From a virus: DNA of 64,000 bases. Made by a program: the position numbers and the translations under genes. Position 1 is the stretch's first letter. Each line of letters begins with the position of its first letter. Under the pieces are notes generated by a model, which saw only the letters and a list, made by a program, of their open reading frames with translations, was not told the DNA's origin and searched no databases. Where the stretch lies: positions 1 to 64,000 of IMG/VR virus record IMGVR_UViG_3300036939_000014. One strand, given 5' to 3'. Shown here one piece after another: positions 16-57,010 of the stretch.

Positions 16-152
16 TTTTTAAACGGAACGTCCTCAGGTCTAATTAAGTAATAGAGTAGTTGCTTCCGTTAGCTCAAACCTATACACCATAAGCTTTAGA
101 GGTCAATTTCTAGCGAAGACTCCCTAGAGGTCAGTTCATTCGCTGCTCTGCC
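16..152 (-). ncRNA. structured repeat element E1 (candidate ncRNA)
   Basis: Minus sense: AGCGAA/TTCGCT hairpin, GAAAUUGACCUCUAAAGCUU block, ACGGAAGC..GUUCCGUUU end; 5' end may reach ~271. Confidence 0.55.
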
Positions 153-361
153 TGACATCAGGGTCTTTATTCTTGTCATCTGGCGGAAGCCTAGTCGCGT
201 CTCTTGACTAGTTGAGGGCATCTTATAAGACTCACTGTGTTATGGGTCTTCATGCCTCTTGCAAGTGCCAATGGTGAGGCGTAGAGTGTGGCACCCCACA
301 GGAATGAGCAAAAATGACTGGTGTTGTGTGATAGCACTAAGTTTTAGTGTCGTGCATCTGG

Positions 362-508
362 ATTTAAGACGGAAGCATTTAGTCTGGGTTCTAGTTAAAC
401 ATTAGTTGCTTCCGGTGAATGAAACCTATATACAGCAATGGTTAGGGGCTATTTTGGAAAGTGAGGTGAATGGCAAGTAGTTCATTCCCTGCTCACCTCA
501 CTGGGCAA
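362..508 (-). ncRNA. structured repeat element E2
   Basis: 10-bp hairpin AGTGAGGTGA/TCACCTCACT, core block, CCGGAAGC..GCUUCCGUCUU end. Confidence 0.55.
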
Positions 509-536
509 CAAAAAAGCCAGCTGTTCAGCTGGCTTT
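508..536 (-). terminator. rho-independent terminator
   Basis: AGCCAGCT-gaac-AGCTGGCT plus T6 in minus sense. Confidence 0.7.
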
Positions 537-558
537 AGGATGCGATCGCTTTAGTCTG

Positions 559-798
559 TTATCCCATTGGAGACATCCTTTTGTCTCTTAAGTACTCCTC
601 TAGGGTTCTCTCTGAAACAAAAGTTGGCTGCTCACTTAATTCAGCTATTAATTTGGCGCGAGCAAAAGCTTCTTCTTTTGTTGACTCCCACGTTTCAGGC
701 AATGGGTAGTCATAATTAGGACTTTCACGATAGATAGCAAATACTTTTGGGTCTTCAGGGGTGGTCATGGTATTGACTCTTGGGAGTGGTTTACTCAT
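559..798 (-). CDS. hypothetical protein (79 aa)
   Basis: ORF with box promoter 812-829 and terminator 508-536 on same strand; bracketed by two element copies. Confidence 0.55.
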   Translation of the reverse strand: MSKPLPRVNTMTTPEDPKVFAIYRESPNYDYPLPETWESTKEEAFARAKLIAELSEQPTFVSERTLEEYLRDKRMSPMG

Positions 799-811
799 CT
801 AGTAAAACAAT

Positions 812-829
812 ATTTTAGCTTAACGTCAA
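812..829 (-). promoter_or_regulatory. box promoter
   Basis: TTGACG-ttaagc-TAAAAT, 14 nt before ATG 798. Confidence 0.6.
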
Positions 830-847
830 TAGCTTATAGGCAAGGTC

Positions 848-1007
848 TTAAAACGGAACGTACTCTGCTTATATCTAGTTAAACACTTGTTGCTTCCGGC
901 GCTTAAAACCCATAGCCCATAAGCATTACAAGTCATTTCTGTGAGACAGCACCAGGCATACCAGTTAGTTGCCACCAGTCGCCCTCAGAATCCACTAACT
1001 CTAGCCA
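848..1007 (-). ncRNA. structured repeat element E3
   Basis: Core plus CCGGAAGCAAC...GUUCCGUUUUAA terminator-like end. Confidence 0.55.
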
Positions 1008-1119
1008 GTGCCCTCATTGTTTGGGACTTAGTGCGAGCATACAGACGGCAATGAGGCATAGACTGACTGCTGCTTGGGACTGAGCTTAAGTACCTTTAAT
1101 TGTGGGTTACTCATTGCTA

Positions 1120-1254
1120 TTTAGACGGAACCAACTGCTGTTTCTATTAGTTATACATCCTCTCGTTCCGGTGGCTCAAAGCTTTACTGCATAAGCATCA
1201 CAGGTCATTTGTGAGAGGCAACACCTCACTAGTCTGTTCCTCTGCTGCTCGCCT
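1120..1254 (-). ncRNA. structured repeat element E4
   Basis: Core plus CCGGAACGAG...GGUUCCGUCUAAA end. Confidence 0.5.
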
Positions 1255-1783
1255 TCCTTAAGGCTGTAATGAGTATTTCTGCTAGTTGTGTTAAAATTTG
1301 CAGCAAAAAATGGACTATCCAAAAATAGCCTAAAAAAATATAGCCTTATGGCTAGTATTCTTTTGTGAGTGAAATTCTCAGCGCTGAGTGTCCGGACAAT
1401 TAGAGAATGTAAGTAGACTCGTTTTTTCGTTGAATCGTATCTTGTCTTCTGCGACTGCTTTTTGACTGTTACCTTGCCAGCAAGTGTAACTTTGTTATGA
1501 CTAAACCCAAGAATCACCACATTGGGGCTATCCGGCTCGCAGTTTGTATCCCCTACTTGGACATCGAACTTCAGAGTCTCTCACAAGCAACCTTGGGGTT
1601 TACCTGTTGTTCCTCTGGCATCCCATTCAATTTTCAGGCTGAATGGAGGGGAGTCAAAAAGTCTTAGCACTTTTGTGCAGCTATCAGTTGGTACAACCAA
1701 CTGCTCTAGAGAAATGGCTCTAGCCACTGACGCTAGTTACAGAGACTATTCCAATAATAGTGGATTCTTACAGTCTTGTCAAT

Positions 1784-1800
1784 ATTGACGTTTAGTAAAA
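1784..1800 (+). promoter_or_regulatory. box promoter
   Basis: TATTGACGTTTAGTAAAAA upstream of 1840. Confidence 0.55.
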
Positions 1801-1839
1801 AATCAAAGATATTTAAATAGATGTCTTTTATCAAAATGT

Positions 1840-2694
1840 ATGATTGCTGAAAATATTTCAATGTTGAATTACAAACTAAGAAGGATTAAAAAGAAGCGGG
1901 AGAAAATTAATAAGGTCGCATTTACTGTTGATAAAGAAAACAATGAAATTAAATTAAGGTTGAGTTCATGTACATCCTTGTTTTGTTTGAGTTTACGTCT
2001 GGTAGTTTTTCTAGAACAAAATAAGTCAGAAGAAAAAAGGATGGCTTCTGAACACACAAAAGCAATTTTGATTCAATATATGGGCATAACAGACGATCAC
2101 CTCAAAAAATGGAAAGAAGAAGGAGTTAGTCTAAGTGATTTTGAGAAATTAATGTTTTGCTTAAGAACGCCAAGCGCCGTTGCAATAAGTCAAATATATT
2201 TAGACTTAGGCAGAGAAAAGTTTTTTAAAGGCTTGTTTAGAGGATTCATTCACCCTAAAGTTTTTGATTTACCAGGTGTTCTAGACTTTCCGCCTCTTGT
2301 TTTTAAGCCTACTGAAAAGCCACAGCCTGAGCATCCTAAGCCAGTAACAGTCAAGTCATCCACAAAACGCCTCAAGCGTTACCGACCTGAATATGAGGCA
2401 TTACCTCGCCACTGCAAAGAGTACGCTATCAGCTTGCGCTTACAGGCTGAATTGGGAGGATTCAGAGAAGTTTCCACTCCATCAGGCAACATCGACCTTT
2501 TGACAGCCTACAAACTCATAGAACTCAAAGCGGGCGAACGTTGGACTCATGGCATAGGTCAGTTGATAGCCTATGGTTTCCACCATCCAGATAAACAGAA
2601 AATCCTCTACCTATTCGACTACGACAACCTTGATTTAGACAACGTTCGGGCTGTATGCCAGAGCGCAAATATTGAGGTGATGCTAGAGCCATAA
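1840..2694 (+). CDS. PD-(D/E)XK nuclease-like protein
   Basis: 284 aa; C-terminal GNIDLL...IELK fits D...ExK nuclease core; full-length paralog of 27031-27885; box promoter 1784-1800. Confidence 0.5.
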   Translation: MIAENISMLNYKLRRIKKKREKINKVAFTVDKENNEIKLRLSSCTSLFCLSLRLVVFLEQNKSEEKRMASEHTKAILIQYMGITDDHLKKWKEEGVSLSDFEKLMFCLRTPSAVAISQIYLDLGREKFFKGLFRGFIHPKVFDLPGVLDFPPLVFKPTEKPQPEHPKPVTVKSSTKRLKRYRPEYEALPRHCKEYAISLRLQAELGGFREVSTPSGNIDLLTAYKLIELKAGERWTHGIGQLIAYGFHHPDKQKILYLFDYDNLDLDNVRAVCQSANIEVMLEP

Positions 2695-2716
2695 CCCACA
2701 ATCATTAAATCCGCAA

Positions 2717-2750
2717 CAAAAAAGAGGGCTAATCACTAGCCCTCTTTTGT
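2717..2750. terminator. bidirectional terminator
   Basis: A6-AGAGGGCTA-atcac-TAGCCCTCT-T4; near-identical copy at 42823-42855. Confidence 0.7.
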
Positions 2751-2765
2751 TATTCAAGCTCGACT

Positions 2766-3170
2766 CTAAAAGCTGTAATTATCTGGGCTGATTTGTCCCT
2801 CACTCACCATCTGGCTGAAGGCGTCAAACACTTCTCTACCTCTAGCTGCAAAGCCCTCTACCAGTGCAAACGCTTCATTAGGCATAAATCCTCGTGACTC
2901 TAACTCGCGCCTCACACACCAGCTGTTAGTGCTGTCGAAGATAGCCGTTAATTTACCTTTCTCAAATGCCAGTGTGACATACCAGTCACCATGCTTGATA
3001 GTGCGTTCACCTTGGCTATGGCTGATTAGTCTTGTGTTGAAGTAAAAGTTTAAAGCTTGGATGGCATAGCAGGGCATATAACCCTCAAACTTATACGCTG
3101 TGCCTTCTCCAAGGTCAAAAGCCTTATCTAGCATTACCTCTATAATGTCTATTGCTGTCTGTTCTATCAC
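2766..3170 (-). CDS. hypothetical protein (134 aa)
   Basis: GTG start; promoter 3201-3229; bidirectional terminator 2717-2750. Confidence 0.55.
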   Translation of the reverse strand: MIEQTAIDIIEVMLDKAFDLGEGTAYKFEGYMPCYAIQALNFYFNTRLISHSQGERTIKHGDWYVTLAFEKGKLTAIFDSTNSWCVRRELESRGFMPNEAFALVEGFAARGREVFDAFSQMVSEGQISPDNYSF

Positions 3171-3200
3171 TGTAAGAATTCTTGATTGCTCGCTGAATCC

Positions 3201-3229
3201 AGTATGATTTAGCTTTAGCTAAACGTCAA
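3201..3229 (-). promoter_or_regulatory. box promoter
   Basis: TTGACG-tttagc-TAAAGC; also TTGACG-17-CATACT. Confidence 0.6.
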
Positions 3230-3250
3230 CGGTATGTTTACTGGATTGTC

Positions 3251-3280
3251 TATTGACATTTAGTTAAAGATAGATATAAT
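3251..3280 (+). promoter_or_regulatory. box promoter
   Basis: TATTGACATTTAGTTAAAG; TTGACA-16-TATAAT. Confidence 0.7.
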
Positions 3281-3304
3281 GATAAAAACACAAGTAAGAA
3301 AACC

Positions 3305-3556
3305 ATGAAGACTTTTGAGCCAAGGTTAAGCGTAGGGCAAGTTGTAATTAATAAATGGGGAAGTAGAGGAGACGAAAAAAATGGTACAGTAATCTGTTTT
3401 GTCCCAGCAAATGTTAAAGCTTCAGATTTACATCCTGACTGTAAAGATAAGCTAAAAGGGCTTTATGATAGCTCAACAAAAGCCAGGTATCTAGTTCAGC
3501 TTGACAATGGAAACTATGCTCTACCTTACGCTGGAGCATTAGAAAAAAACAATTAG
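3305..3556 (+). CDS. hypothetical protein (83 aa)
   Basis: TTGACA-16-TATAAT promoter 3251-3280; strong terminator 3571-3617. Confidence 0.55.
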   Translation: MKTFEPRLSVGQVVINKWGSRGDEKNGTVICFVPANVKASDLHPDCKDKLKGLYDSSTKARYLVQLDNGNYALPYAGALEKNN

Positions 3557-3570
3557 TAAATTGCTGTGAC

Positions 3571-3617
3571 AACAATAACCTCTAGGTTGAGCTAGCCTAG
3601 AGGTTATTGTTATTTAT
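3571..3617 (+). terminator. rho-independent terminator
   Basis: 16-bp stem AACAATAACCTCTAGG/CCTAGAGGTTATTGTT followed by ATTTAT. Confidence 0.7.
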
Positions 3618-3627
3618 ACTTACTCTT

Positions 3628-5052
3628 ATGGTTGCCACTCCTGAACAAACACGCCTCAAACTGTTAGAAGCTGAAAATGAAGCGCTAAAGCTAGACAGTC
3701 TCTTAAGGAATTTAGCGACTGGTTTGGGAAGTCTCACAGGAGACAAACGTCTGGCAAATGTTGTACAACCCCCTACGCATTTAGACCATAAAGAGATTGA
3801 CTCCTGGTTCGAGTCTAATAAGTATGCTGCTAAACTTATAACGACTCCGGTAGAATATTCTACACGCAAGTGGTGTATCTATTCTTTAACGGATGAAATA
3901 GATGATAGAGGCGAAGTGGCTCAGGCAATGCAGAAGCTGATAGACTCTGTTGCGCCAATCTTTACTGAGGCTTTAATCACTGCTCTTAAGTATGGCGGCA
4001 GTGCAATTGTGATAGGTGCCCTAGATGGCATAGAAGACCCTTCTCAGCCACTAAACAAAGACCGTCTTAAGTCCCTTAAGCTCATCCGAGTAGCAGAAGC
4101 GGGAGTATCACAAGAACTACAAGTCGCCAGATGGGGGGAAAATCCGTTAGAGGCTGATTACAATATGCCAATCATGTATCAATTTGCCTCCAATGAGACA
4201 GCGTTTGTACACCCTTCCAGGCTTATCCTGTTCAATGGTATTGATGTAGGTGCAAGACGTTCTAGAGAGCAATACAACGGTTTTGGCGCGCCATTGTTGC
4301 AACGTTGCATTGGAGAGCTTAGAGACTTTACGTCTTCGATAGACTCTATTGCTTTGGCGCTTACTGATTGGAATCGTCTGGTAGTTAAGCTCAAAGGCTT
4401 AGTTGATTTAATTGCCGCTAAGAAAAAAAAAGAAGTAGAAGAAAGACTTAGGCTGTATCAATATACGTCATCCGTAATGAGTGCGTTTGTGGGTGACCCT
4501 GAAGACCAGATAGAGTATCTTAACCGCTCATTTCAGGGTGTGCGTGAGATGCTCGAAGTATTAAAGATGGACTTAGGAGCGTGTGCAATAGAACCTCACA
4601 CTACTTTCTTCAACGAGAGTCCATCAGGCAATACATCTGGCACTGACCAGATGAGAAACATTAATAGTCAGATAGCCAACTTCCAAGAGAAGGCTATCAG
4701 AAAGCAGATTGAGTACCTAATAGACCTCTGGCATCATTGCCAAGATTCACCCACTAAAGGACAACCACCAGAGTCCTATGAACTAACATTCCCTGTAGTG
4801 TACGAACTCAATGAAATCGAACGTGCAGCGCTCGAGAAGACTCAAGCTGAACGTATGGCAATACTGCTTAAGGGTAATGGCAATGAGGGCGTAATTAATC
4901 CCCTAGAGGCTGCTGAGGCGATTGCTCGTGATGTACCACTGAGCAGTGTGATTGACTTAGATGCTCGCCAGAAGGCAGCTGCTGAGGCTGCTAAGGAACT
5001 GGCAGAATTTGAGACTGAGGGTTTTGTAGTTAAGAAGCGTGAAATAGTATGA
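3628..5052 (+). CDS. putative phage portal protein
   Basis: ATG 3628 chosen because track start 3607 lies inside the upstream terminator; 474 aa; size, acidic C-terminus and sequence character resemble DUF1073-type portals; Mu-F-like gene nearby. Confidence 0.5.
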   Translation: MVATPEQTRLKLLEAENEALKLDSLLRNLATGLGSLTGDKRLANVVQPPTHLDHKEIDSWFESNKYAAKLITTPVEYSTRKWCIYSLTDEIDDRGEVAQAMQKLIDSVAPIFTEALITALKYGGSAIVIGALDGIEDPSQPLNKDRLKSLKLIRVAEAGVSQELQVARWGENPLEADYNMPIMYQFASNETAFVHPSRLILFNGIDVGARRSREQYNGFGAPLLQRCIGELRDFTSSIDSIALALTDWNRLVVKLKGLVDLIAAKKKKEVEERLRLYQYTSSVMSAFVGDPEDQIEYLNRSFQGVREMLEVLKMDLGACAIEPHTTFFNESPSGNTSGTDQMRNINSQIANFQEKAIRKQIEYLIDLWHHCQDSPTKGQPPESYELTFPVVYELNEIERAALEKTQAERMAILLKGNGNEGVINPLEAAEAIARDVPLSSVIDLDARQKAAAEAAKELAEFETEGFVVKKREIV

Positions 5053-5264
5053 AATTTACTGAATCTCAGATAACGATAGTGGTAATTGTGGGATTAGTCT
5101 CTATTCTGTTCTCATTAGCTTTATGGTTTCAGCTTTCCCAAATAAACCAAGCTAAAGAAAGAACTGCTCAATACCTAGAAGTCTGTGTGCAGGATGGCTA
5201 CAAAAAAAGTGATTGTATAATCAAATGGACAGAAGCACACAGAGTTTATTACAACAATGACTAA
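5049..5264 (+). CDS. small membrane protein
   Basis: ATGA overlap with portal stop; one hydrophobic helix IVVIVGLVSILFSLALWF. Confidence 0.5.
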   Translation: MKFTESQITIVVIVGLVSILFSLALWFQLSQINQAKERTAQYLEVCVQDGYKKSDCIIKWTEAHRVYYNND

Positions 5265-5496
5265 AGAGTTGGAAAAGGGCGCTTATTCACTGAAGCCACA
5301 CGACATTATTGTTTATAAGCATACCTTAGGCGTAGCAAGGCAATACACAATACTATCTGTAATTGTTGGCGGTTTAAATGATGAGGGATTTGTAGAATTA
5401 GAATCTAGTGTTGAACCTTCTAGAGTATTTCATTTTCCTATTGCTTTATTAGATGCAGCCATTGAATCTGGCATCTTCCAGATTTATGAAGGGTAG
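5257..5496 (+). CDS. hypothetical protein (79 aa)
   Basis: Overlap-coupled to upstream ORF. Confidence 0.5.
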   Translation: MTKELEKGAYSLKPHDIIVYKHTLGVARQYTILSVIVGGLNDEGFVELESSVEPSRVFHFPIALLDAAIESGIFQIYEG

Positions 5497-5545
5497 GAAA
5501 CAATGACTAGACAGCAAGGGAAACAAACTCTTTGTGGTTTTCATG

Positions 5546-5670
5546 TTTCCTACACTAATAGCTTTCTATTCTAGTTAACAACCTGTTGCTGTAGGTTGCT
5601 GAAAGCTATACCCAGTAAGTATCACAAGTCATTTTTGAGTGAAAGCCTCCGTCAAGTCTGTTCTGCCTAG
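5546..5670 (-). ncRNA. structured repeat element E5 (CCTAC-stem variant, no U-run)
   Basis: Core recognisable; overlaps the last codons of CDS 5629-6279 on the same strand. Confidence 0.4.
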
Positions 5671-6279
5671 CTTCAGGTTCCAATCTTCATTTCCTACTAC
5701 AGCCTCAAGAGAGCCACTCATGGTCTTGTATGCACCGTCCACTTTGACAACCAAGTGACTGACTTCTCCTTCTTCACTCAACTTGAAGGTAATATTCACT
5801 CGTTGCGAACTACATACAGTTCCACCCCCCTGTGTTTGTGTCTTGTACTGCTTTTTGCAGCGTCCACAAGTCCACTTATCTTCGCTTTCTGTACTACTGC
5901 GACTTATTGCTTTTGAAGCCTTGCAGAAGGGACATCTAGGGCGATGCTTCTTGTAATATTCCTTACGCAGAGCTTTAAGCAGTTCGTACCGTTTATTTTT
6001 GTCGAGTCCTAACCTACGCTCTGCGCGTTCTAGCTGTACACTTACCTGATTGTGTGAGTTAATGCCCAACTCATTGCGAATGTCAGCATTGCTCATCGGC
6101 TCGCACCCAAAACCGTAGAACATCACAAACACTTGGCGCTGCTGTAATGACTTAATCTTAGTGTCTATGTCATCTTGAGTCAGATTGGGGTACATCTGTT
6201 CCAAGTATTTGTGACGCAATGGAAGAGGTAGCCCTCTAATTTTTTCAGGCATGGCAGCGAGCAAGTGAGGATAACTCAT
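5629..6279 (-). CDS. sigma-70 region-4-like HTH protein with zinc ribbon
   Basis: LQQRQVFVMFYGF..SNADIRNELGI..VSVQLERAERRL resembles sigma region 4; CPFC...CGRC ribbon; flanked by element copies at both ends. Confidence 0.45.
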   Translation of the reverse strand: MSYPHLLAAMPEKIRGLPLPLRHKYLEQMYPNLTQDDIDTKIKSLQQRQVFVMFYGFGCEPMSNADIRNELGINSHNQVSVQLERAERRLGLDKNKRYELLKALRKEYYKKHRPRCPFCKASKAISRSSTESEDKWTCGRCKKQYKTQTQGGGTVCSSQRVNITFKLSEEGEVSHLVVKVDGAYKTMSGSLEAVVGNEDWNLKLGRTDLTEAFTQK

Positions 6280-6325
6280 TATGTCACACAGAATATAGCG
6301 TCATGTGATAACAGACATGAGCTTC

Positions 6326-6455
6326 ATAAAAACGGAACGTTAGTGCTGTAGTTAAGTATTAGATCTTAGGCGTTCCGGTGACTGCAACATATACAGAGTA
6401 AGGCTTTGAGGTTGATTTTGAGAAAGAGCTGAATAGAGGTTAGTTGCTGTGTGGT
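6326..6455 (-). ncRNA. structured repeat element E6
   Basis: CUCAAAAUCAACCUCAAAGCCUUACU core, CCGGAACG..CGUUCCGUUUUUAU end; directly upstream of CDS 5629-6279. Confidence 0.6.
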
Positions 6456-6457
6456 TA

Positions 6458-6478
6458 GGTTGACAGTTAGGTAAAAAC
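6458..6478 (+). promoter_or_regulatory. box promoter
   Basis: TTGACA-gttagg-TAAAAA; also 17 nt to CATAGT. Confidence 0.5.
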
Positions 6479-6865
6479 AAGGCATAGTGAAGATAGAGTT
6501 AACCAATCACAAAGATGCTAGCCAATACACTAAACACTGCATTGACGACCAAAAACTTAGATCAAGTAAGTTCGCTAAGGATAGAGATAACAGCCGAGGT
6601 GCTTAATCATCTGGGCATAATCGTGTGGAATAGTTCCCAAGGATTGGGATAAGCCCGAAGGCAATCAAGCATTGTGTGTTTCATTTTGCAAAGATAACCC
6701 ATCTTTAGGGCAGTGCTTAGACATCCTCTTTACAATGCATGACGGACATCCGCAAGTGCAGATTAATGGAGTAGCACAATCTCACTGGAGGCTCAACCAA
6801 CAGCAAAGCTAGAATGACCCCATAAGTTTGCTCGCTAACCTCTCAATAATGAGAGGTTATTTTTT

Positions 6866-7180
6866 ATGAATCACAGCACTATTGTTGCAACAAAATATAT
6901 AGATAACAAACTAACAGTAGTAGCAGAGTGCTACCAGCATGATAATGGCAAGAATGAGTGGTTCAAGTTGAACGATATCCAGACGTGGCAAGATTGGTCT
7001 GAGGACTGGTTAGCTTATCTTGATGGGGACATTGTAAAGTATGGCAAGCAGATGTTCAGGGCAATCAGCAGAATGAGAATAGAGCCATTGCACACTTGCC
7101 CTACTAAACCACTATTCGACAGTTGCGCTGTAGATTGGTCTAAAGTGGGAGAGATAATCCGCTCGCATTTTAGAACATGA
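6866..7180 (+). CDS. hypothetical protein (104 aa)
   Basis: First gene of a three-ORF overlap-coupled operon; terminator-like hairpin just upstream. Confidence 0.55.
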   Translation: MNHSTIVATKYIDNKLTVVAECYQHDNGKNEWFKLNDIQTWQDWSEDWLAYLDGDIVKYGKQMFRAISRMRIEPLHTCPTKPLFDSCAVDWSKVGEIIRSHFRT

Positions 7181-7461
7181 CAAGGCTAGTAGAGAAAGAA
7201 CTAGAAGATCGTAAAGTTTATATAGTTGCAGGTTTATTATCTTATTCTTTTGCATCTGCTTGTGATGATTATGATGGCGAACCTAAAGACTACTTAGCGG
7301 GAAAATGGGAGGAAATTATAAAAGGCTTGAATGATGTCAATTGGGTAAATGGAAAGCATGAAGGAGATTGTACTAAAGTGCCAGCATCGTGTCTAAGATG
7401 TCATATTGAAGCACTCGTTGATGAGGCTAAGGAACTACTAGTAAGTTGTGGATTGCAATGA
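7177..7461 (+). CDS. hypothetical protein (94 aa)
   Basis: ATGA overlap with upstream ORF. Confidence 0.55.
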   Translation: MTRLVEKELEDRKVYIVAGLLSYSFASACDDYDGEPKDYLAGKWEEIIKGLNDVNWVNGKHEGDCTKVPASCLRCHIEALVDEAKELLVSCGLQ

Positions 7462-7640
7462 GTAAAAATGAGTACACCGATTCAGAAATCTTCCAGAAGC
7501 CCGGTAAAGTCTTAGACGATTCAGAGTATCAAAAGATAGCTGACGAGTCCTCAGAAGCCGTAGATGCTGCGATTACGGCTCTTAGAAAAGCTGGTATGAA
7601 TAAGGCTGTAGAACTGATTGAGGCGACAGATAGTGAGTAA
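7458..7640 (+). CDS. hypothetical protein (60 aa)
   Basis: ATG 7458 overlaps upstream stop (ATGA); track start 7446 is a GTG extension. Confidence 0.45.
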   Translation: MSKNEYTDSEIFQKPGKVLDDSEYQKIADESSEAVDAAITALRKAGMNKAVELIEATDSE

Positions 7641-7834
7641 AGTTTTACAAAGTGATGGCGAGATTGATTACAAACCAGTCCCTCCAAAAAGTTCAAGAAT
7701 CGTACGCATGAAAGCGCAGTTTAAAGGACGTGGAAAACCTTTGCTGTATCCAATAGACAAAGCAGGCGATCCCGGTTTTTGAGCATGAGGCACAATCCGC
7801 TAGTAGTTTTGGATAACAATAAAATACTTAAGCA

Positions 7835-8503
7835 GTGTCATACTCTTACGACAAGAAAAGCCAGCGTTACCGCAATAAACAGACAGGTCGTTACATTCCA
7901 AAGTCCACTGTAGATAATCTGATTGCAAAGCGCATCGCTGCAATCGAGTCAGATGTCTTAACCATAGGTTCACTACTTCAGAATGACCGCATTTCATTAG
8001 AAACTTGGCAATACACTACTGCCAACACTATTCGAGAATTGCACCTACAGTCATACCTACTAGCTAGAGGCGGGAAAGCTCAGATGACACCTGAGGATTA
8101 TCTAGTAGTAGCGCGTGAGCTTAAGAAACAGTACCGCTACTTGAGAAGCTTTGCTGAGGATGTCAACCGTGGTTACAGTATCGATAAAAATGGGCGTCAG
8201 GTTCCTATGACAGTTGCTCGTTTTGAACAACGCTTAAGACTCTACGCTAAGTCAGGTAGAGCAGCAGCTAATCTAGCAGAAGAACAGAGTAATAGGCGAG
8301 CTGGCAAGGTTGCAATGTCACGTCATCTTGGAGCAACAGACAGGCACTGTAGTAGCTGCGTAAGTTATGCCTCAGCTGGCATACAGCCGCTAGGGGCTTT
8401 GCCTCTACCATGTCAACAATGTGAATGTGGCAACAATTGCTTGTGTAGTGTTCGATGGTATGGTGTGGATGATTTGCAGAGAATAGCTGACAAAGTTAGT
8501 TAA
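7835..8503 (+). CDS. putative head morphogenesis / minor capsid protein (Mu F / SPP1 gp7-like)
   Basis: 222 aa; C-terminal D..HCSSC...P.PCQQCECGNNCLC resembles the Cys-rich end of Mu F-like proteins; near portal-like gene. Confidence 0.45.
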   Translation: MSYSYDKKSQRYRNKQTGRYIPKSTVDNLIAKRIAAIESDVLTIGSLLQNDRISLETWQYTTANTIRELHLQSYLLARGGKAQMTPEDYLVVARELKKQYRYLRSFAEDVNRGYSIDKNGRQVPMTVARFEQRLRLYAKSGRAAANLAEEQSNRRAGKVAMSRHLGATDRHCSSCVSYASAGIQPLGALPLPCQQCECGNNCLCSVRWYGVDDLQRIADKVS

Positions 8504-8515
8504 TATTTTAAAATT

Positions 8516-8749
8516 ATGTCTGAAGCATTAGGTAGAGAAATTAATGAATTTTATACAAATTACTATCCACCTCACTGCTACCTTAGTGAGATGGAAGACT
8601 GGGTATTAAAATACATCCAGAAAGACGGTAGTTTGACGTTGCCAGATGACGGCTTGTTTGACATAGAGGACTTTGGTATTTTTGTCAATGAGGATACTGA
8701 AGAATCCAAAAGCTTTAGCAGTCTTTTTAAAAAATGGCGAACATCATGA
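8516..8749 (+). CDS. hypothetical protein (77 aa)
   Basis: ORF directly after 7835-8503. Confidence 0.5.
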   Translation: MSEALGREINEFYTNYYPPHCYLSEMEDWVLKYIQKDGSLTLPDDGLFDIEDFGIFVNEDTEESKSFSSLFKKWRTS

Positions 8750-8973
8750 TTAAAGAACCTATAATTCTACTAACTTGCCATGATGTTCTTGATGAAAAGT
8801 TTTATTATTGGTTTGGACTTGTATTCTTCGCTGTTCAGTTAGATATTGCTTTTATTCTTAGGACTGGCGATGTAATTACTATACAAGAGTCTCATGAGAG
8901 GCTATGGAAGTTAGAAGAATTTTATCTCAATGAAAACAATACAGTGAGTATTTATGCCATTCAAGTAGAATAA
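8734..8973 (+). CDS. hypothetical protein (79 aa)
   Basis: Overlaps upstream ORF; followed by terminator 8972-9000. Confidence 0.5.
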   Translation: MANIMIKEPIILLTCHDVLDEKFYYWFGLVFFAVQLDIAFILRTGDVITIQESHERLWKLEEFYLNENNTVSIYAIQVE

Positions 8974-9000
8974 AAGCCCTCTTAGTTAGAGGGCTTTTTC
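8972..9000. terminator. bidirectional terminator
   Basis: AAAAGCCCTCT-tagtt-AGAGGGCTTTTT. Confidence 0.75.
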
Positions 9001-9025
9001 AATAGCTCCATGAAACAGCAGCCGA

Positions 9026-9292
9026 CTAGACAAGCTGTTCAAGTTCTAGCTTATCAAACTCTACAGTCTCACCTTCTGGCACTCTGAGTTTAAATTGTGG
9101 ATAAGAGCTTACTTTGGGGCTATCAGACGGAACAAACTGCAAAGTGTAGAGGTTGCTTTGCAATACGAGGTCTTTATCTGGTTTGCCATCTTTCACAGGT
9201 AGCTGACTAAGGTTGCCACTCAAGTCATTAATGATGAGCATCCCAGTAAAAGGCTTTTCCTGATATTTTACTGAACCAACAATCTTAGGCAC
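9026..9292 (-). CDS. hypothetical protein, PFTG-domain paralog 2
   Basis: GTG 9292 gives MPKIVGSVKYQEKPFTGMLI, which parallels the paralog-1 N-terminus; GTGCCTAA overlap with upstream stop; track start 9385 would overlap 100 nt. Confidence 0.45.
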   Translation of the reverse strand: MPKIVGSVKYQEKPFTGMLIINDLSGNLSQLPVKDGKPDKDLVLQSNLYTLQFVPSDSPKVSSYPQFKLRVPEGETVEFDKLELEQLV

Positions 9293-9728
9293 TAGTTGAA
9301 GCTCCACCACCGCGCTTTGTGCTGACTGTATTTGGTGCCACTTCTTGCTCAGTTGCTGGTGGCTGTGCCACCACTGTAGGGTCATTTAGTACGCCAACTA
9401 CACCAGCATCAGCAGCAGGTTCTGGCTGTGGCATTGTCTGCTTAATTTCCTCCTCATTGACCTTCTCGCCTTTTAATGAAGCACAGATATCAGCCAGTTC
9501 TACCTCAGGCTTATCAGGAACGATTAAGAGGTCGAATACAGTAGGTTTCTCAGCTTGTACCCATTCAACGTTGTAGCGACCCGGCATAAGCTCCACTGGC
9601 TCAATCTCAGGATTGCCATCGTTGATTTGCAACATTCTACGCTCTTGCTGAGAGTTTAGATAGATTAAGTACCCAGTAAACGGTTGTCCGGGCTTGGGGC
9701 TTAAAGGACGGGTTGTGATAACAGGCAT
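9285..9728 (-). CDS. hypothetical protein, PFTG-domain paralog 1
   Basis: 147 aa; starts MPVI...PFTGYLI; paralogous to downstream ORF. Confidence 0.55.
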   Translation of the reverse strand: MPVITTRPLSPKPGQPFTGYLIYLNSQQERRMLQINDGNPEIEPVELMPGRYNVEWVQAEKPTVFDLLIVPDKPEVELADICASLKGEKVNEEEIKQTMPQPEPAADAGVVGVLNDPTVVAQPPATEQEVAPNTVSTKRGGGASTSA

Positions 9729-9780
9729 TTCAAATGTTTTGTAAGCTTACGGTTAACAAGTTTAGCTCAATTGCATCGTG

Positions 9781-9943
9781 TGGCATAGTGTCTAGGGGCA
9801 GAAGTAGTGGGAGCAGAGGGGGGAACATACCGTGCTGATGCTCATGCTTTAAACTAACCCCTAATCCTTGCTGCATATAGTGTGTAGCTGCCGGAAGGTC
9901 TAGACTCTAGATAATAACTACAGTGTTAACGTTCCGTTTTTTT
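9781..9943 (+). ncRNA. structured repeat element E7
   Basis: Starts TGGCAT; GAGCA/TGCTC hairpin; core; CCGGAAGG..CGTTCCG plus T7 run. Confidence 0.65.
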
Positions 9944-9947
9944 ATTG

Positions 9948-9969
9948 GCGTTGACATTAAGTTAAAAGC
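9948..9969 (+). promoter_or_regulatory. box promoter
   Basis: TTGACA-ttaagt-TAAAAG directly after the E7 terminator. Confidence 0.55.
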
Positions 9970-9996
9970 TGGATAAGCTGTAGGAGAAGTTAACCA

Positions 9997-48588: not shown

Positions 48589-48745
48589 TGGCAATATAAT
48601 AGCCGGGAGTGAGCAAGCATGAGAGGAACATGACTAGGTTCGGCTCTTGTTCAGAACAGACTTCAACGCTTCACTACATATAGCTTTGAGCCACAGACAC
48701 CAACAGCATGTAGATAATAACTACAGAGGTTTGCTACCGTCTGAT
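48589..48745 (+). ncRNA. structured repeat element E16
   Basis: TGGCAATATAAT then GGGAGTGAGCAAGC 5' domain; core; degenerate terminal stem. Confidence 0.5.
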
Positions 48746-48761: not shown

Positions 48762-48938
48762 TGGCATTTGGTGCGATCGCTCAGGTCTTCATTGCCTGAA
48801 GTTTGGCAGAACCATCGCACCAACTGACTGATTATGTGTTCCCCCTGAAAATTGACCTCTAATGCTTGCTGCTTATGGATTACAGCTACCGGAACCAATA
48901 GACTCTAGATAATAAGTAAGCAGCTAACGTTCCGTTTA
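48762..48938 (+). ncRNA. structured repeat element E17
   Basis: TGGCAT start; 10-bp stem TTGGTGCGAT/ATCGCACCAA; CCTGAAAATTGACCTCTAATGCTTGCTG core; CCGGAAC..GTTCCGTTT. Confidence 0.65.
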
Positions 48939-48953
48939 CAGATACTGGGTCAC

Positions 48954-49180
48954 TGGCAATACAGACACGATCGCAAAAGCAACAGGTGTGATAACAATGT
49001 CCCCCCGCATAAGGCTAGCATCAGTCACCCAATGCAAGCCTTATTTGTTGCCAGAAGCAAAGCAACTGACTTCTATTCTGTTCATTCTCAAAACAGACCT
49101 ATAAGCCTTGCTCCATATGGTGTTGAGCTACCGGAACCTCCAATATGTTAGTTAAATCAGAAGCACTAACGTTCCGTCTA
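48954..49180 (+). ncRNA. structured repeat element E18 (long 5' domain)
   Basis: TGGCAA start; extra hairpin ATAAGGCT/AGCCTTAT; AGAAG/CTTCT hairpin; core; canonical terminal hairpin. Confidence 0.6.
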
Positions 49181-49211
49181 ACACCTCTCTCCCAAAAAAT
49201 TTAACTCAGCG

Positions 49212-51815: not shown

Positions 51816-51844
51816 TTGACAAACTATTGACGTTTAGCTAATAT
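51816..51844 (+). promoter_or_regulatory. double-box promoter
   Basis: TTGACA-aactat-TTGACG-TTTAGC-TAATAT. Confidence 0.7.
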
Positions 51845-52545: not shown

Positions 52546-52574
52546 TTGACAATGTGTTGACGTTTAGCTAAACT
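52546..52574 (+). promoter_or_regulatory. double-box promoter
   Basis: TTGACA-atgtgt-TGACG-TTTAGC-TAAACT. Confidence 0.7.
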
Positions 52575-53388: not shown

Positions 53389-54789
53389 ATGGCAGTCCGC
53401 GTAACCCAACAACGCTGGTCATTTATTGCACTACTTGGGTTAAGTATTACAAGTGGTGTAATTGCACTAGGAATTATTTCTCAAAACTATTCTACTGCCT
53501 CTGTTAGCAGCATGAGAGCAAAGAACGCGATACTAGCCCTAAGCCAGCTAGAAGGTTCTCTAAAGGATGCTGAAACGGGGCAGCGGGGATTCTTGTTAAC
53601 GGGTGACGATGATTACTTAGATCCCTACATAGAGGGTGCTGGAATAGCGCAAGCCAATGTTGCAAAGCTTGAGACTCTACTCAACTACTCTGATACAGTA
53701 AGCTCCAAAAGCCTTGAAGACATCAAACACTTCACAGACCTTAAGCTTAAAGAACTTGAAACAACTATTGCGCTAAGACGATTCAAGAGTCTAGAGGCAG
53801 CTTTGCCGCTGGTCAAGAGTGGCGAAGGCAAAGGCTACATGGACATCATTAGAGCGCGAGCCAATCGCATTAGGTACGCTCAAGAGTCCATATTGGGGAC
53901 TAACCTTGCAATTCTTGACCAGCTAGACGTATTCCGCAACAGCATAATAGTGCTAATCGGCGTAGCTTCTACTGGTATCTTCTGCCTGCTGTTCCAAAGT
54001 TTTCGTGAAGAGATAGCCTTACGCAAACTGATAGTAGCTAATCAAGAAGCTGAGATTAAAGCGAATGAAAATACTGTTAAGACCCTAAGAGATGCTGCCA
54101 ACCTTAAAGAACGTGAGTTGAGCCTGCGTATCCATGATTGGAAAAACCCTGTAACTTCAATCCAAAGCAGTATTGACCTAATACACTACTATTACGAAAA
54201 AAAACAACTGTCTTTAGCCAATTTTGAAAAACACTACAATCGCATAGTTGTAAGTGTTGCAACATTGCTAGATGGCTTTAACGATGCACTAACAGTGGCG
54301 CGAGCAGAAGCTGGAAAGTTAGACATCACAAAAGAACGTACCGACCTTGTTACAACAATCCGCAATAGTATTGCAGCAGTAGAGGCAAAGGCTGTCAATC
54401 ACACAATTAGACTGTATCAGAGTGATATTGAGTACCAGGTAGAGTGTGATGCAACGTTAGTGCAGCGAGCAGTGGTAAATCTATTGGAGAATGCCATCAA
54501 ACACACCCCATCAGGTGAGATTGCGGTATGTCTCTGTAGGGGGTCTACAAAGACCGTTATCCAGGTAGCTGACCAAGGTGAGGGGATTCCACATGAAGAC
54601 CTGCAACGTCTGTTCAGTGCCTTTGAGAGGGGCAATACAGCAGCAACAGGGACAGGTCTAGGTTTAGCAGTGGTGAAATCGTGTGCAGAAGCTCATGAGG
54701 GTACAGTGCGAGTGGAGTCACGAGAGGGACTAAGACTTGCACATCCTGACGGACTGACCTACAGAACTATGTTTACGCTGGTGATTTAA
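53389..54789 (+). CDS. CHASE3-domain sensor histidine kinase
   Basis: N-terminal TM; ETGQRGFLLTGDDDYLDPY (CHASE3); second TM; H-box LRIHDWKNPV; ENAIKHTP, DQGEGIP, GTGLGLAVV (HATPase_c N/G1/G2). Confidence 0.85.
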   Translation: MAVRVTQQRWSFIALLGLSITSGVIALGIISQNYSTASVSSMRAKNAILALSQLEGSLKDAETGQRGFLLTGDDDYLDPYIEGAGIAQANVAKLETLLNYSDTVSSKSLEDIKHFTDLKLKELETTIALRRFKSLEAALPLVKSGEGKGYMDIIRARANRIRYAQESILGTNLAILDQLDVFRNSIIVLIGVASTGIFCLLFQSFREEIALRKLIVANQEAEIKANENTVKTLRDAANLKERELSLRIHDWKNPVTSIQSSIDLIHYYYEKKQLSLANFEKHYNRIVVSVATLLDGFNDALTVARAEAGKLDITKERTDLVTTIRNSIAAVEAKAVNHTIRLYQSDIEYQVECDATLVQRAVVNLLENAIKHTPSGEIAVCLCRGSTKTVIQVADQGEGIPHEDLQRLFSAFERGNTAATGTGLGLAVVKSCAEAHEGTVRVESREGLRLAHPDGLTYRTMFTLVI

Positions 54790-54882
54790 CCTACAGTAGA
54801 GGCTGTCTGTATTAGTTTAGATGGGTCTGCTGTAGGTTGCTACAATGTATATACACCAAGGCTTAGGGTTTGATTTTGGGAA
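54790..54882 (-). ncRNA. structured repeat element E19 (CCTAC-stem variant)
   Basis: CCCAAAAUCAAACCCUAAGCCUUGGUGUAUAUAC core; CCTACAG/CTGTAGG stem; between the kinase gene and 54897. Confidence 0.45.
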
Positions 54883-54896
54883 TAAGCCGACAGCAG

Positions 54897-55139
54897 ATGA
54901 GTTACTTAAGAGTTGTCCGCTGGTTTGAGAGAGACGGCGACAAATTAATCGGAGAGCAGCCACTAGACGGCGTTGACTTGTCTATTCTTCAGAAGGCTTT
55001 TGCTGTTGCCGCCGATGACCCAATGTATGATTGCTATCCGATTGAAACTAAGCAACAAGTTGAATACATTCAGGGCGTCACGCATCTGGTGATTAACATA
55101 CAATCTTATGATTACTTTTTGGAGTGTGATGCCAGTTAG
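54897..55139 (+). CDS. hypothetical protein (80 aa)
   Basis: ATG 54897; the track TTG extension overlaps an element copy. Confidence 0.5.
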   Translation: MSYLRVVRWFERDGDKLIGEQPLDGVDLSILQKAFAVAADDPMYDCYPIETKQQVEYIQGVTHLVINIQSYDYFLECDAS

Positions 55140-55230
55140 ATAAATTCCAATATCATGTGATAATCAGCTTCGATAGCTGGATGGATAAAGGTGATTTGCG
55201 TTTCGTACTGTCAAACTTGGCGCAAATCAC

Positions 55231-55259
55231 TTGACAAATATTTGACAATTAGATAATAT
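55231..55259 (+). promoter_or_regulatory. double-box promoter
   Basis: TTGACA-aatatt-TGACA-ATTAGA-TAATAT; abuts 10-bp hairpin 55191-55230. Confidence 0.65.
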
Positions 55260-55327
55260 AAAAGGTATAGGTAATGTCGTGATGACACCCTTGGCTCAAC
55301 CTATCAGGCTATGAGCCTAAAGAAAAA

Positions 55328-56200
55328 ATGACAGTAGTAACAAAACAGTTCGTAATTGATGCGCTGAACTCTATTGAAGAGTTCCCGATTGACTTTGATG
55401 ATGTATGGCAAGAAGCTGGATACACGCGAAGAGATAACGCACGTCGCCGTCTTAAGGACTTAGAAGAGAATGTAGATTTCGCATTACTCACTTCTGAGGA
55501 ATGGAGTCAGGAAGGGCGTTTGAAGGATTCCATAAAATTCTCTGTGGATGGCTACAAGCATTTTTGCTTGATGGCGAAGAATTCCAAGGGAAGGGAAACA
55601 CGGAACTACTTCATCACAATAGAAAAGGTACAACGTCAAAAGCTAGAGCAGCAGTTCAACCAACCTTACATCAGGACTGACTTTAACCTCCTTAAGCAAG
55701 AGCAAGACAAAAATGATGCACTCTGCTTCGAGATTAAAAAGCTACAAGTTCAAGTAGAAAGTCTAAATACTAAAGTCGGTAAGCTTACAGGATTACTCAA
55801 CACTGCTAAACGTAAGCTTGAGATTGCAGAGCGAAACCACCGCTCAGGGCAATGGGCAGCAGATATCACTGGAGAGTCTACAGGCTTCACCTACGATGCT
55901 GATTATTTGTTTCTTATCACTGGTATTGCTTGCCGTAAGTACTTCATTGCAAAGCTGTTCGAGAACTTCAAGCTGTCGGAAGACTTTATCAAAGAACGCT
56001 ACTCTAAGTCAAAACATGGTGACTTTGCACTAGGCAAGGATAAATACTTTACTGACGCACAAACAGCACTAGCTACCGTAATCAATCACCGAAGCAAAGC
56101 TGGCATCAGTAAACGTGAGTTACCCGCCATGTATCACTTCTTGTTTGACCATATTACAGACGGCAACAATACCAACAGACGACACCTAAGAGCTAGGTAG
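55328..56200 (+). CDS. antirepressor-like / DNA-binding protein
   Basis: SVDGYKHFCLMAKNSKGRETRNYFITIEK resembles AntA/ANT-type phage domains; coiled-coil centre. Confidence 0.4.
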   Translation: MTVVTKQFVIDALNSIEEFPIDFDDVWQEAGYTRRDNARRRLKDLEENVDFALLTSEEWSQEGRLKDSIKFSVDGYKHFCLMAKNSKGRETRNYFITIEKVQRQKLEQQFNQPYIRTDFNLLKQEQDKNDALCFEIKKLQVQVESLNTKVGKLTGLLNTAKRKLEIAERNHRSGQWAADITGESTGFTYDADYLFLITGIACRKYFIAKLFENFKLSEDFIKERYSKSKHGDFALGKDKYFTDAQTALATVINHRSKAGISKRELPAMYHFLFDHITDGNNTNRRHLRAR

Positions 56201-56221
56201 ACTCATCACACCATAGTCGTT

Positions 56222-56245
56222 AGCCCTCAACTGAGGGCTTTTTTA
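56222..56245 (+). terminator. rho-independent terminator
   Basis: GCCCTCA-ac-TGAGGGC plus T6. Confidence 0.7.
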
Positions 56246-56249
56246 TTGC

Positions 56250-56401
56250 CCAAAATGCAAGCGCACCCGCAGAACCATCAGTAAACAGTAGCAGGTTCTG
56301 TTTAATCTCAAAACGAACCTCGAAGCCTTACTGAATATACACTACAGCTACCGGAACGTGCAGGATATTAACTACTACAGATTAGCTCACGTTCCGTTTT
56401 A
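56250..56401 (+). ncRNA. structured repeat element E20
   Basis: CAGAACC/GGTTCTG hairpin; CTCAAAACGAACCTCGAAGCCTTACTG core; CCGGAACG..CGTTCCGTTTT. Confidence 0.65.
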
Positions 56402-56413
56402 CTCCTCTCATCC

Positions 56414-56442
56414 TTGTCACTCTCTTGACATCCTGTTAATAT
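56414..56442 (+). promoter_or_regulatory. double-box promoter
   Basis: TTGTCA-17-TAATAT with TTGACATCCTGT in the spacer. Confidence 0.55.
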
Positions 56443-56478
56443 GTAGTAATCCTTTACACCTTTACCACTGTGATAACA

Positions 56479-56907
56479 ATGGCAACTACAAGCACGGAAC
56501 GGATGCGGTTATTAAATGCTCGCCGCAAAGCTGGAATAAAGTTACCTATTTGCAAAAGGTGTTGTGCTAAATGCACATCCGCAGAAGGAATCAAACAGCA
56601 CCTATGCTCATCATGTAGGCGAGCAACGCCAGAAGGGCGTAAGAAGGCAATAGAGAATGCCTACAAGAGCATTTACCGTAGAGAGGCATTGAAAGCTCTA
56701 CAGGCTCAGCTAGAGGGCTTTGAGTGGCAGTGGCAAGAAGTAGAAGTTAGGTTGCCGAGCCACTCTCAACAGGTACTCACAGAAACTCTTAGGGGAGCAA
56801 GAACTATGGGCATTTATTCCCCTGAGCAGGGCTGGACAGATAGCATTGATGGTAGTGCCGTCAAAGTGAAGCGATGGGCTGAAATACCTAAAAGAGAGGA
56901 AAGCTAA
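56479..56907 (+). CDS. Cys-rich hypothetical protein
   Basis: ATG 56479; CKRCCAKC...CSSC; flanked by inverted element copies. Confidence 0.5.
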   Translation: MATTSTERMRLLNARRKAGIKLPICKRCCAKCTSAEGIKQHLCSSCRRATPEGRKKAIENAYKSIYRREALKALQAQLEGFEWQWQEVEVRLPSHSQQVLTETLRGARTMGIYSPEQGWTDSIDGSAVKVKRWAEIPKREES

Positions 56908-57010
56908 AACGGAACGTCTGTGAGTCAGATTAAGTAATAGACTTACTCCTCCCGTCTACTTAAACGTATATACAGCAACAGTTATAAGTCGTTTTTAACC
57001 TTAGACTGCT
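56905..57010 (-). ncRNA. structured repeat element E21
   Basis: Minus sense UUAAAAACGACUUAUAACUGUUGCUGUAUAUACG core; ACGGGA/UUCCGU stem plus UUUU; inverted relative to E20 across CDS 56479-56907. Confidence 0.5.

Follow-up and report, generated by a model that had tools for sequence, protein, structure and literature searches.

Results and Discussion

A stretch of viral DNA of 64,000 nt (IMG/VR record IMGVR_UViG_3300036939_000014, positions 1 to 64,000; the whole stretch is referred to here as the window) contains 22 copies of one non-coding unit of 133 nt, which together take up ~4.6% of this phage DNA and are located at the edges of transcription units. An initial annotation, made from the letters alone, had described the repeat as a structured RNA of several domains with a promoter in front and a terminator behind. 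The analysis presented here indicates that it is a real new element, although not a proven structured RNA. The window is DNA of an uncultivated phage, encoding a portal protein (PF06381), tail proteins, three helicases and a 1398-aa primase/replicase-like protein, and the counts given below refer to it unless relatives are named.

Detection, length and boundaries of the 133-nt unit

With eight copies as its seed, an nhmmer profile returns 21 copies and no others, all of them full length (E 1e-34 to 8.5e-6), and a second profile built from all 21 returns them with E values of 2e-33 to 5e-20. The covariance model (CM) R1 scores the same 21 copies at 81–119 bits and adds a degenerate but full-length 22nd copy at 62398-62530(+) (36 bits, E 2e-7), so that the ~21 dispersed copies of the initial annotation are all recovered. 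A repeat finder likewise returns the family on both strands. The conserved block noticed initially gives 5 matches at up to 3 mismatches where 0.00 are expected, and the pattern ACCGGAAS-N(30-36)-GTTCCGTYT gives 8 matches against 0 expected, always with a spacing of 33 nt.

The core alignment is gapless over 21 of 21 copies, and only four single-base indels occur among 38 copies from three phages. Identity between paralogues in the window averages ~52% and reaches at most 78%, the value for copies 15 and 18, which share an identical 3' half; truncated copies are absent. All-against-all BLAST of extended copies reveals that homology between paralogues stops ~3-7 nt before column 1 and at approximately column 132-146, from which a unit length of ~133 nt and a total span of 2.8 kb (21 x 133 nt) follow, the latter in agreement with the ~3 kb estimated at first. 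The variable 5' domain, often beginning TGGCAY, that had been counted as the first part of each copy is flanking DNA outside these limits.

The unit is non-coding. No frame is open in more than 3 of the 38 copies, each of the six frames is interrupted by stops, and the 3-nt periodicity of conservation expected of a protein-coding mini-gene is absent (0.89, 0.88 and 0.98 for the three codon phases). Nor do the conserved positions follow the 10.5-bp period of the helix, the strongest period being 22 nt and borderline.

Selection on the unit

Orthologous copies were compared between the window and a close relative, L006. The 47 columns conserved across the family are 92% identical, which is close to the 96% found at codon positions 1 and 2, whereas the family-variable columns of the element are 72% identical, compared with 63% (portal) and 76% (tail gene) at four-fold degenerate codon sites. 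This comparison shows purifying selection that keeps the same ~47 positions and the same length in each copy, and shows variable parts that drift at about the neutral rate. Because each copy is held to the same consensus, the element is functional and not decaying junk, and because the variable columns drift approximately neutrally, the copies seem functionally equivalent; their variable parts are unlikely to carry copy-specific information. Selection thus maintains the unit by position and with base-exact length across phages whose portals are only 58-69% identical, a large investment for a compact genome, and the element points to a function so far undescribed for phages.

These rates bear directly on a set of guide or antisense RNAs, in which a constant scaffold would be combined with copy-specific targeting by the 5' domain or by the 33-nt loop of the 3' hairpin. 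A variable part, a constant part and a hairpin do resemble engineered and natural guide scaffolds, and the loops fall into discrete types. Against this, variable columns are neutral between orthologues, the upstream "variable domain" lies outside the repeat, the best complementarity of a loop within the window is 24.3 bits (shuffled mean 21.8, maximum 28.2), and a nuclease partner is not seen among the annotated open reading frames (ORFs). We regard guides as highly improbable.

A terminal stem that changes in sequence and keeps pairing

The unit ends in a stem of 6-7 bp that encloses a 33-nt A-rich loop. Three versions are found in the window, CGGAAC/GTTCCG, CCGACACC/GGTGTCGG and CCTACA(G)/(C)TGTAGG, all of which pair, and the relatives L013 and L018 have the further versions CAGAAC/GTCCTG and CAAGCAG/CTGCTTG. 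Covariation was computed on 60 distinct copies. Pair 84:127 is GC in 41, AU in 7 and UA in 5; pair 85:126 is GC in 46, AU in 8 and UA in 1; pair 86:125 is AU in 25 and CG in 8, with a mismatch tolerated in several lineages; and both sides change in five of the seven pairs formed by columns 83-89/122-128. The stem covariation score is 0.276, compared with 0.146 ± 0.013 for shuffled alignments, none of 500 of which reaches it, and 76% of stem cells pair, versus 26-45% with slid partners; another alignment gives a similar picture. For columns 83-89/122-128 the paired share is 80%. Comparative data of this kind support the original statement that the terminal stem pairs through sequence change, and indicate a single helix kept by compensatory change, with the limit that the changes trace to ~4-6 ancient types rather than to many independent events. 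Since complementary stem versions coexist in one genome, the pattern points to folding of a single strand rather than to a protein reading a fixed duplex.

The remaining helices of the initial annotation fare less well. The hairpin around a UAUAU loop amounts to 3 bp and is paired in 70% of cases. The 5' hairpins are specific to individual copies: they are present where they were listed, but in different registers, and many copies have none; the mean folding z of the 5' region is -0.8. In copy 2, the strongest example of a 5' hairpin taken to be compensatory, the closest orthologue (89% identical) has three uncompensated mismatches. Mutual information, diagonals of canonical fraction, pair probabilities and a comparison of columns 69-75 with 99-106 give no support for other helices or for a loop pseudoknot.

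A multi-helix structured RNA, as the several domains proposed initially would imply, is not supported, with one helix only and folding z-scores near those of shuffled sequences.

Distribution in related phages and in databases

True matches of pattern scans of IMG/VR are confined to two contigs, both from relatives of this phage: 9 copies lie in 18 kb of the relative with 94-95% portal identity, and 8 copies in 21 kb of the relative whose portal is 68% identical. Additional relatives, with 58-69% identity, were reached through portal homologues in a large protein collection. Model R1 detects 7 copies in L013, 5 in L011 and 6 in L019, and stretches of 12-21 kb from relatives contain 5-9 copies each. 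Relative L018 (portal 60% identical) has an element that is rearranged and too diverged for R1, with the central block AAAGCCATGCTGTATAAGGCTTT kept and hairpin stems CAAGCAG/CTGCTTG and GGTAGGG/CCCTCTACC, one hairpin being short-looped (L018:9835-9886, 12254-12400, 12700-12738). Copies 5, 6 and 7 have positional counterparts in the relative with 68% portal identity. In the sequences searched, the family is thus restricted to a single phage clade; its presence in relatives at 58-69% portal identity, at corresponding positions, marks it as old and for the most part inherited in place.

The pattern used for database scans catches 6 of the 21 window copies, and its five matches outside the two related contigs are all rejected by the profile. 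A scan of 185,579 GTDB genomes gave 3 such chance matches, with the limit that one pattern was scanned and divergent host copies could be missed, and one pattern scan of JGI metagenomes likewise gave chance matches only. Rfam 15 has no match to the whole window at gathering threshold; at E ≤10, two element-rich stretches match only eukaryotic long non-coding RNAs and small nucleolar RNAs at chance level, together with DicF (13 bits, compared with a gathering score of 48), and no element is matched as a unit. ARAGORN finds no tRNA or tmRNA genes in the window, and literature searches returned no description of a 133-nt element of this kind. The statement that the repeat belongs to no known family therefore stands in Rfam both at the gathering threshold and at E ≤10.

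Distribution also bears on a selfish element of the MITE (miniature inverted-repeat transposable element), REP or ERIC type, functionless for the phage and tolerated in intergenic DNA only. Consistent with such an element, copies are dispersed between genes, three are fused to gene 3' ends with one absorbed into a coding region, copy number varies among closely related phages, L006 having one more at 8265-8397, and copies 15 and 18 have the identical 3' half noted above. Several features nevertheless make a selfish origin very unlikely. Terminal inverted repeats (TIRs) are absent: when the initial 25 nt are compared with the final 25 nt in reverse complement, the longest shared word averages 4.29 (null 4.22 ± 0.22). 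Target-site duplications (TSDs) are absent as well (longest word shared by the two ends 3.95 on average, null 3.76 ± 0.18, with ends placed within a few nucleotides). No copies are near-identical, paralogues being ~52% identical on average, and none is truncated or riddled with indels; the conserved columns are under purifying selection in place, and positions are kept across phages with 68% portal identity. No true copy occurs in the GTDB genomes or JGI metagenomes scanned with the pattern that catches 6 of 21 copies, and no transposase was found in 36 window ORFs scanned, all the largest included. The initial annotation had named abundance in host chromosomes with TSDs as the sign of a passively carried MITE; the single pattern scan of GTDB yields no host copies, and neither TIRs nor TSDs are seen.

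Genomic context of the copies

A copy typically lies between a canonical terminator and the next promoter (Table 1), and a promoter motif peculiar to this phage comes after copies 3, 7, 13 and 18. This promoter-like motif, TTGACA-N5-TTGACGTTTAGCTAAAAT, forms a second repeat family, with 19 matches at up to 3 mismatches versus 0.11 expected; it has at least 19 sites (for example 18637-18654, 51827-51844, 52557-52574 and 812-829(-)), often stands directly after a terminator hairpin and T-run, and its inner TTGAC could be a regulator site. The promoter in front of each copy that was proposed initially is seen for copies 8 and 11, where the motif (degenerate for copy 11) lies upstream with no other evident target, an arrangement kept for copy 8 in L013; it is not general, and -10 hexamers are not enriched next to the copies.

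Table 1. Copies of the 133-nt unit in the window, with strand, score in covariance model R1 and local features.
Copy	Position	Strand	CM score (bits)	Remarks
1	18-150	-	101.6	First of four copies upstream of leftward gene block; orthologue L006:4433-4565, 80% identical
2	364-496	-	99.0	~12 nt past canonical terminator AAAGCCAGCTGAACAGCTGGCTTTTTT
3	848-980	-	99.4	Followed by phage promoter motif 829-812(-)
4	1120-1252	-	103.7	
5	5544-5676	-	103.4	Stem type CCTACA/TGTAGG; first 45 nt encode last 15 aa of ORF 5629-6279 (translation)
6	6327-6459	-	102.7	48 nt upstream of ORF 5629-6279
7	9810-9942	+	95.4	U7 tail; -35 of next promoter another 9 nt on
8	14864-14996	+	115.5	Phage promoter motif upstream, 14804-14821(+)
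9	15453-15585	+	97.9	Mismatched stem arms CCGACAG / CTTCCG
10	20903-21035	+	88.3	CCTACA type without U-run; ends 20-35 nt before tail-gene start
11	26845-26977	+	88.4	Flanked by two leftward genes and antisense to them; immediately preceded by degenerate promoter motif
12	28025-28157	+	98.8	
13	28264-28396	+	101.2	Starts ~30 nt past canonical terminator
14	38329-38461	+	110.3	Stem CCGACACC/GGTGTCGG; hairpin -15.1 kcal/mol; overlaps last 27 nt (9 codons) of ORF 37942-38355
15	38498-38630	+	119.4	
16	48613-48745	+	83.4	First of three in tandem; follows canonical terminator; degenerate stem
17	48808-48940	+	110.4	
18	49050-49182	+	117.9	D18 repeat; promoter motif then at ~49212
19	54785-54917	-	88.8	CCTACAG/CTGTAGG type; antisense to flanking rightward genes
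20	56270-56402	+	96.3	~30 nt past canonical terminator; sole strong fold, z = -3.2
21	56904-57036	-	81.2	Antisense to flanking rightward genes
22	62398-62530	+	36.4	Degenerate, full-length alignment; read through as C-terminal part of replicase-like ORF 58369-62565 (translation)

Three copies (5, 14 and 22) overlap the 3' ends of co-oriented ORFs, rather than copy 5 alone as first annotated. Twelve copies lie in divergent intergenic regions and are uninformative on orientation, because whichever way such a copy points, a gene downstream of it points the same way. Of the copies that are informative, 4 run antisense to genes (8, 11, 19 and 21) and 5-8 run with them (16-18, 20 and 22, to which 5, 14 and 15, where gene ends converge, may be added). 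Copy 10 ends shortly before the start codon of the tail gene, and a divergent promoter abuts its other end; for this reason the tail-gene mRNA probably runs through copy 10, unless the promoter of the gene lies inside the element. In the comparison of the window with L006, three mosaic breakpoints are found no more than 80 nt from an element.

The ORF that overlaps copy 5, 5629-6279(-), encodes a 216-aa protein known only from the phage clade, with 6 homologues, and elements flank the ORF in every relative. The protein has a weak match to the zinc ribbon of IS1595 transposases (PF12760, E 9e-5, below the family cut-off), its N-terminal half looks helix-turn-helix-like by eye, and its C-terminus, ...DW.LKLG, is conserved in relatives. 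Its AlphaFold2 (AF2) model, with a pLDDT of 58, was too poor for a fold search, and comparison with PDB sequences and NCBIfam returned nothing informative.

Upstream of copy 4, a non-coding region of ~110 nt at ~1292-1398 is 100% identical to L006, the genes of which are only ~86-90% identical at the DNA level. It contains two hairpins, each followed by a T-run, is recognisable also in L016 and L013, and could be a packaging, replication or regulatory site.

A possible RNA module and its alternatives

Taken together, the data require a function that is the same in all copies, that uses ~47 fixed positions, an exact length and a single-strand fold, and that is wanted at transcription-unit edges. 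Our preferred reading, held tentatively and at somewhat less than an even chance, is that the 133-nt unit is a functional RNA module, equivalent in all copies, which acts at transcription-unit edges through one common recognising factor. The unit would be transcribed in the sense assumed initially, either from a nearby phage promoter or as the tail of an upstream mRNA or a 5' leader. Its 3' hairpin, with the U-Y-U or U-run that follows, would form or protect a 3' end or act as a weak one-way barrier to read-through, and the largely unpaired block of ~80 nt (AAA..AC.T.TAA..CTT..TAT..TT..AG.A.CGG.A) would present a shared recognition surface to one trans factor, which might be a phage or host protein or another RNA. 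An element of this kind would act as a many-copy mark or decoy, and not as guides with different targets. A T-tract follows the stem on this strand only, which favours the sense polarity. Sense transcription is also favoured by the probable passage of the tail-gene mRNA through copy 10, by the promoter motifs in front of copies 8 and 11, and by the overlap of three copies with gene 3' ends, a placement like that of a 3' UTR.

A number of observations weigh against the RNA module. Folding is weak: RNAalifold on 38 copies returns one 5-bp helix of -1.8 kcal/mol, copy-averaged pair probabilities exceed 0.2 only at columns 83-89/122-128 on either strand, and the terminal stem is the sole Watson-Crick signal among the top mutual-information pairs. 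Whole-unit folding z-scores average -0.9 in sense and -0.8 in antisense against mononucleotide shuffles, and with dinucleotide shuffles they are -0.09 to -1.4 in seven of eight copies and -3.2 in one (median ~-0.45); local hairpins fold at -4 to -16 kcal/mol. A 6-bp stem with a 33-nt loop is moreover a poor intrinsic terminator. By a criterion of a G+C-rich stem, a loop of 3-8 nt and a run of at least 5 T, the terminator-like sites in 1-20000 number 23 and include no element hairpins, because the loop is 33 nt. The U-run said to follow the hairpin holds for part of the family, in that ~9 of 21 copies have at least 4 U within 6 nt after the stem, whereas most have U-Y-U only and the CCTACA-type copies have no U-run.

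Promoters and orientation are likewise unfavourable. Four or five copies, 2, 13, 16 and 20 among them, start 12-35 nt past a strong terminator, which leaves little room for a promoter, and in L006, the closest relative, the promoter motif of copy 8 is deleted. Hexamers resembling a -10 box just upstream of column 1 occur in 7 of 51 cases (control 6 of 51); a modest excess at -78 to -69 (21/51 versus 8/51) is largely common to orthologues, and matches in a scan for sigma-70 promoters are not above shuffles. The ORF map and gene calls reveal no orientation bias relative to genes. Finally, stem cells contain 22 A.C and 8 G.U combinations, which favours the opposite strand, and column pairs 16:32 and 81:130 have 16 and 16-19 A.C cells, respectively, with T/C varying opposite a fixed A; read on the other strand, T/C opposite a fixed A becomes an exchange of U-A for U.G.

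An RNA read from the opposite strand, with the hairpin at its 5' end and the conserved block downstream, would turn the A.C cells into wobbles (22 G.U and 8 A.C in the stem), and of the 38 copies, 36 would be paired at 16:32 and 32 at 81:130, compared with 20 and 21 in the sense reading. Copy 9 has a promoter motif, at 15673-15656(-), that is directed into it from this side. We nevertheless consider this polarity unlikely. The A.C excess comes from few independent events, in the L013 and L011 lineages and in some chimeric or degenerate copies, the 3' end on that strand has no terminator-like feature, and leftward promoters at 15401-15373 and 20905-20888 lie between copies 9 and 10 and the genes, so that these copies would be outside those transcripts.

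The main rival to the RNA module is a cis-acting site at the DNA level, in which the 133-bp unit would be a binding platform for a DNA-binding or architectural protein of the phage or host, possibly co-regulating or insulating neighbouring promoters, managing supercoiling or providing patches of homology for module exchange. Many equivalent dispersed copies are typical of cis sites, the orientation is unbiased, the length is fixed and almost free of indels, sequence is conserved more than pairing, and the wobble statistics are unlike those of a sense RNA. Of the 22 copies, 12 occupy divergent promoter regions, and several directly adjoin a -35 box or are flanked by outward-facing promoters; the three mosaic breakpoints near elements and the clade-specific zinc-ribbon ORF 5629-6279, flanked by elements in every relative, would also fit. 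The coexistence of 3-5 complementary stem sequences in one genome is, on the other hand, hard to explain by recognition of a duplex, and 6-bp arms with a 33-bp spacer would not extrude as a cruciform; the conserved positions lack helical periodicity, and the T-tract is strand-specific. A cis site accordingly seems to us possible but doubtful.

A wider possibility, which we rate as rather unlikely in this specific form, is that the 22 units constitute a new class of many-copy phage RNA, or of DNA site that folds as a single strand, with a rigid architecture of 133 nt by which one specific factor is recruited or titrated. Such units might serve as decoys for a protein of host defence or RNA processing, or they might be the cis component of a genome-wide transcription-boundary system with a clade-specific trans protein such as the zinc-ribbon protein of ORF 5629-6279. 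If the functional form is RNA, the family would be unusually large for a phage non-coding RNA; if it is a DNA site, the copies would form a cis system extending over the genome, comparable in scale to mycobacteriophage stoperators, although each site would be much larger and partly folded. For comparative work the clade provides a clean data set with dozens of copies per genome, and the question is experimentally tractable given a host or a metatranscriptome.

The phage, its probable host and other features of the window

The HIP1 octamer GCGATCGC occurs 8 times where 0.5 are expected, and several sites are avoided: GGCC (0 versus 129 expected), GGCGCC (0 versus 6), TGGCCA (0 versus 11) and GATC (60 versus 238). 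HIP1 enrichment is typical of cyanobacteria and their phages. This enrichment, together with the avoidance of GGCC-type sites, suggests a cyanobacterial host and pressure from host restriction systems. Isolated phages in INPHARED have no DNA match to an element pair or to the tail gene, and their best portal matches are 27-28% identical.

Two genes may have DNA-modification functions, one encoding a DndC-like protein of the PAPS-reductase family (19828-20853(-); TIGR03183, E 4e-29, below cut-off) and the other a Dam-family adenine methylase (62629-63483(+), E 5e-81). A complete sensor histidine kinase with a CHASE3 domain (53389-54789(+); Pfam CHASE3 2e-28, HATPase_c 5e-23) looks like a host-derived acquisition. 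The small protein of 10830-11234(-) (L014:17203-17526) has a weak match to the Acb2/Tad1 hairpin family PF24729 in precomputed annotation and is a possible anti-CBASS/Thoeris sponge.

Further repeats of other kinds are present. ORF 28852-31521, whose 889-aa protein has no family match, contains at least nine tandem repeats of ~126-141 nt (~44 aa) at 29155-30630 (families D6, D7, D10 and D12), which probably form a repetitive tail-fibre-like domain. Three neighbouring small paralogues (126, 118 and 98 aa) at 38697-39715(-) give DNA repeats that are 64-75% identical (D13, D15). An intergenic repeat of 59 nt, ending in AAAATACAAAACCGCTCA, occurs three times at 24517-25419 with a spacing of ~400-440 nt among small leftward genes (D16).

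Comparison with known systems

Each of the known systems compared here has one or two traits in common with the unit. Core sites of integron attC recombination sites follow R''/R' = RYYYAAC / GTTRRRY. The 133-nt element resembles attC in that pairing is kept while sequence changes, attC sites lying at cassette boundaries, and differs in that its copies can stand in tandem without an intervening gene. An identity with attC is rejected: CGGAAC / GTTCCG fail the Y and R positions, and no integrase is found among the annotated ORFs.

RNase III sites of phage T7 are strongly paired hairpins of ~60 nt, all co-oriented with transcription. About ten related intergenic hairpins across a phage genome, acting on transcripts and leaving a protective 3' hairpin, are the likeness here; the element, in contrast, has a stem of 6-7 bp with the other ~80 nt unpaired, and its orientation is mixed.

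REP/BIME, ERIC and Correia repeats consist mainly of long imperfect palindromes or TIRs, are abundant in host genomes, and are often recent, near-identical copies. Like the element they measure 100-150 bp, lie between genes or at gene 3' ends, are sometimes transcribed and are occasionally absorbed into coding regions, whereas the 133-nt unit shows no long palindromes, TIRs or near-identical copies, and no host copies in the GTDB pattern scan.

Among multi-copy families of small RNAs are the NsiR1 tandem array of Nostoc, the Yfr2 family and LhrC1-5. These also consist of paralogous intergenic units, sometimes in tandem and in either orientation, with a conserved unpaired block and a 3' hairpin. 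The phage element, as a candidate RNA, has far more copies (22 in 64 kb, dispersed through a phage genome), has no match in Rfam by sequence or structure, and ends in a hairpin with a 33-nt loop that in many copies falls short of a proper terminator.

PeSL cassettes of T4-type phages combine a strong sigma-70 promoter with an effective terminator stem-loop (PMC2839356, Arbiol et al. 2010). Like the element, they are small intergenic units repeated within a phage genome that border small transcription units and lie close to mosaic breakpoints (PMC2839356). The 133-nt unit is longer, differs in sequence and has no recognisable promoter, and the PeSL-like combination of terminator and promoter in the window (TTGACA-N5-TTGACGTTTAGCTAAAAT) forms a separate family.

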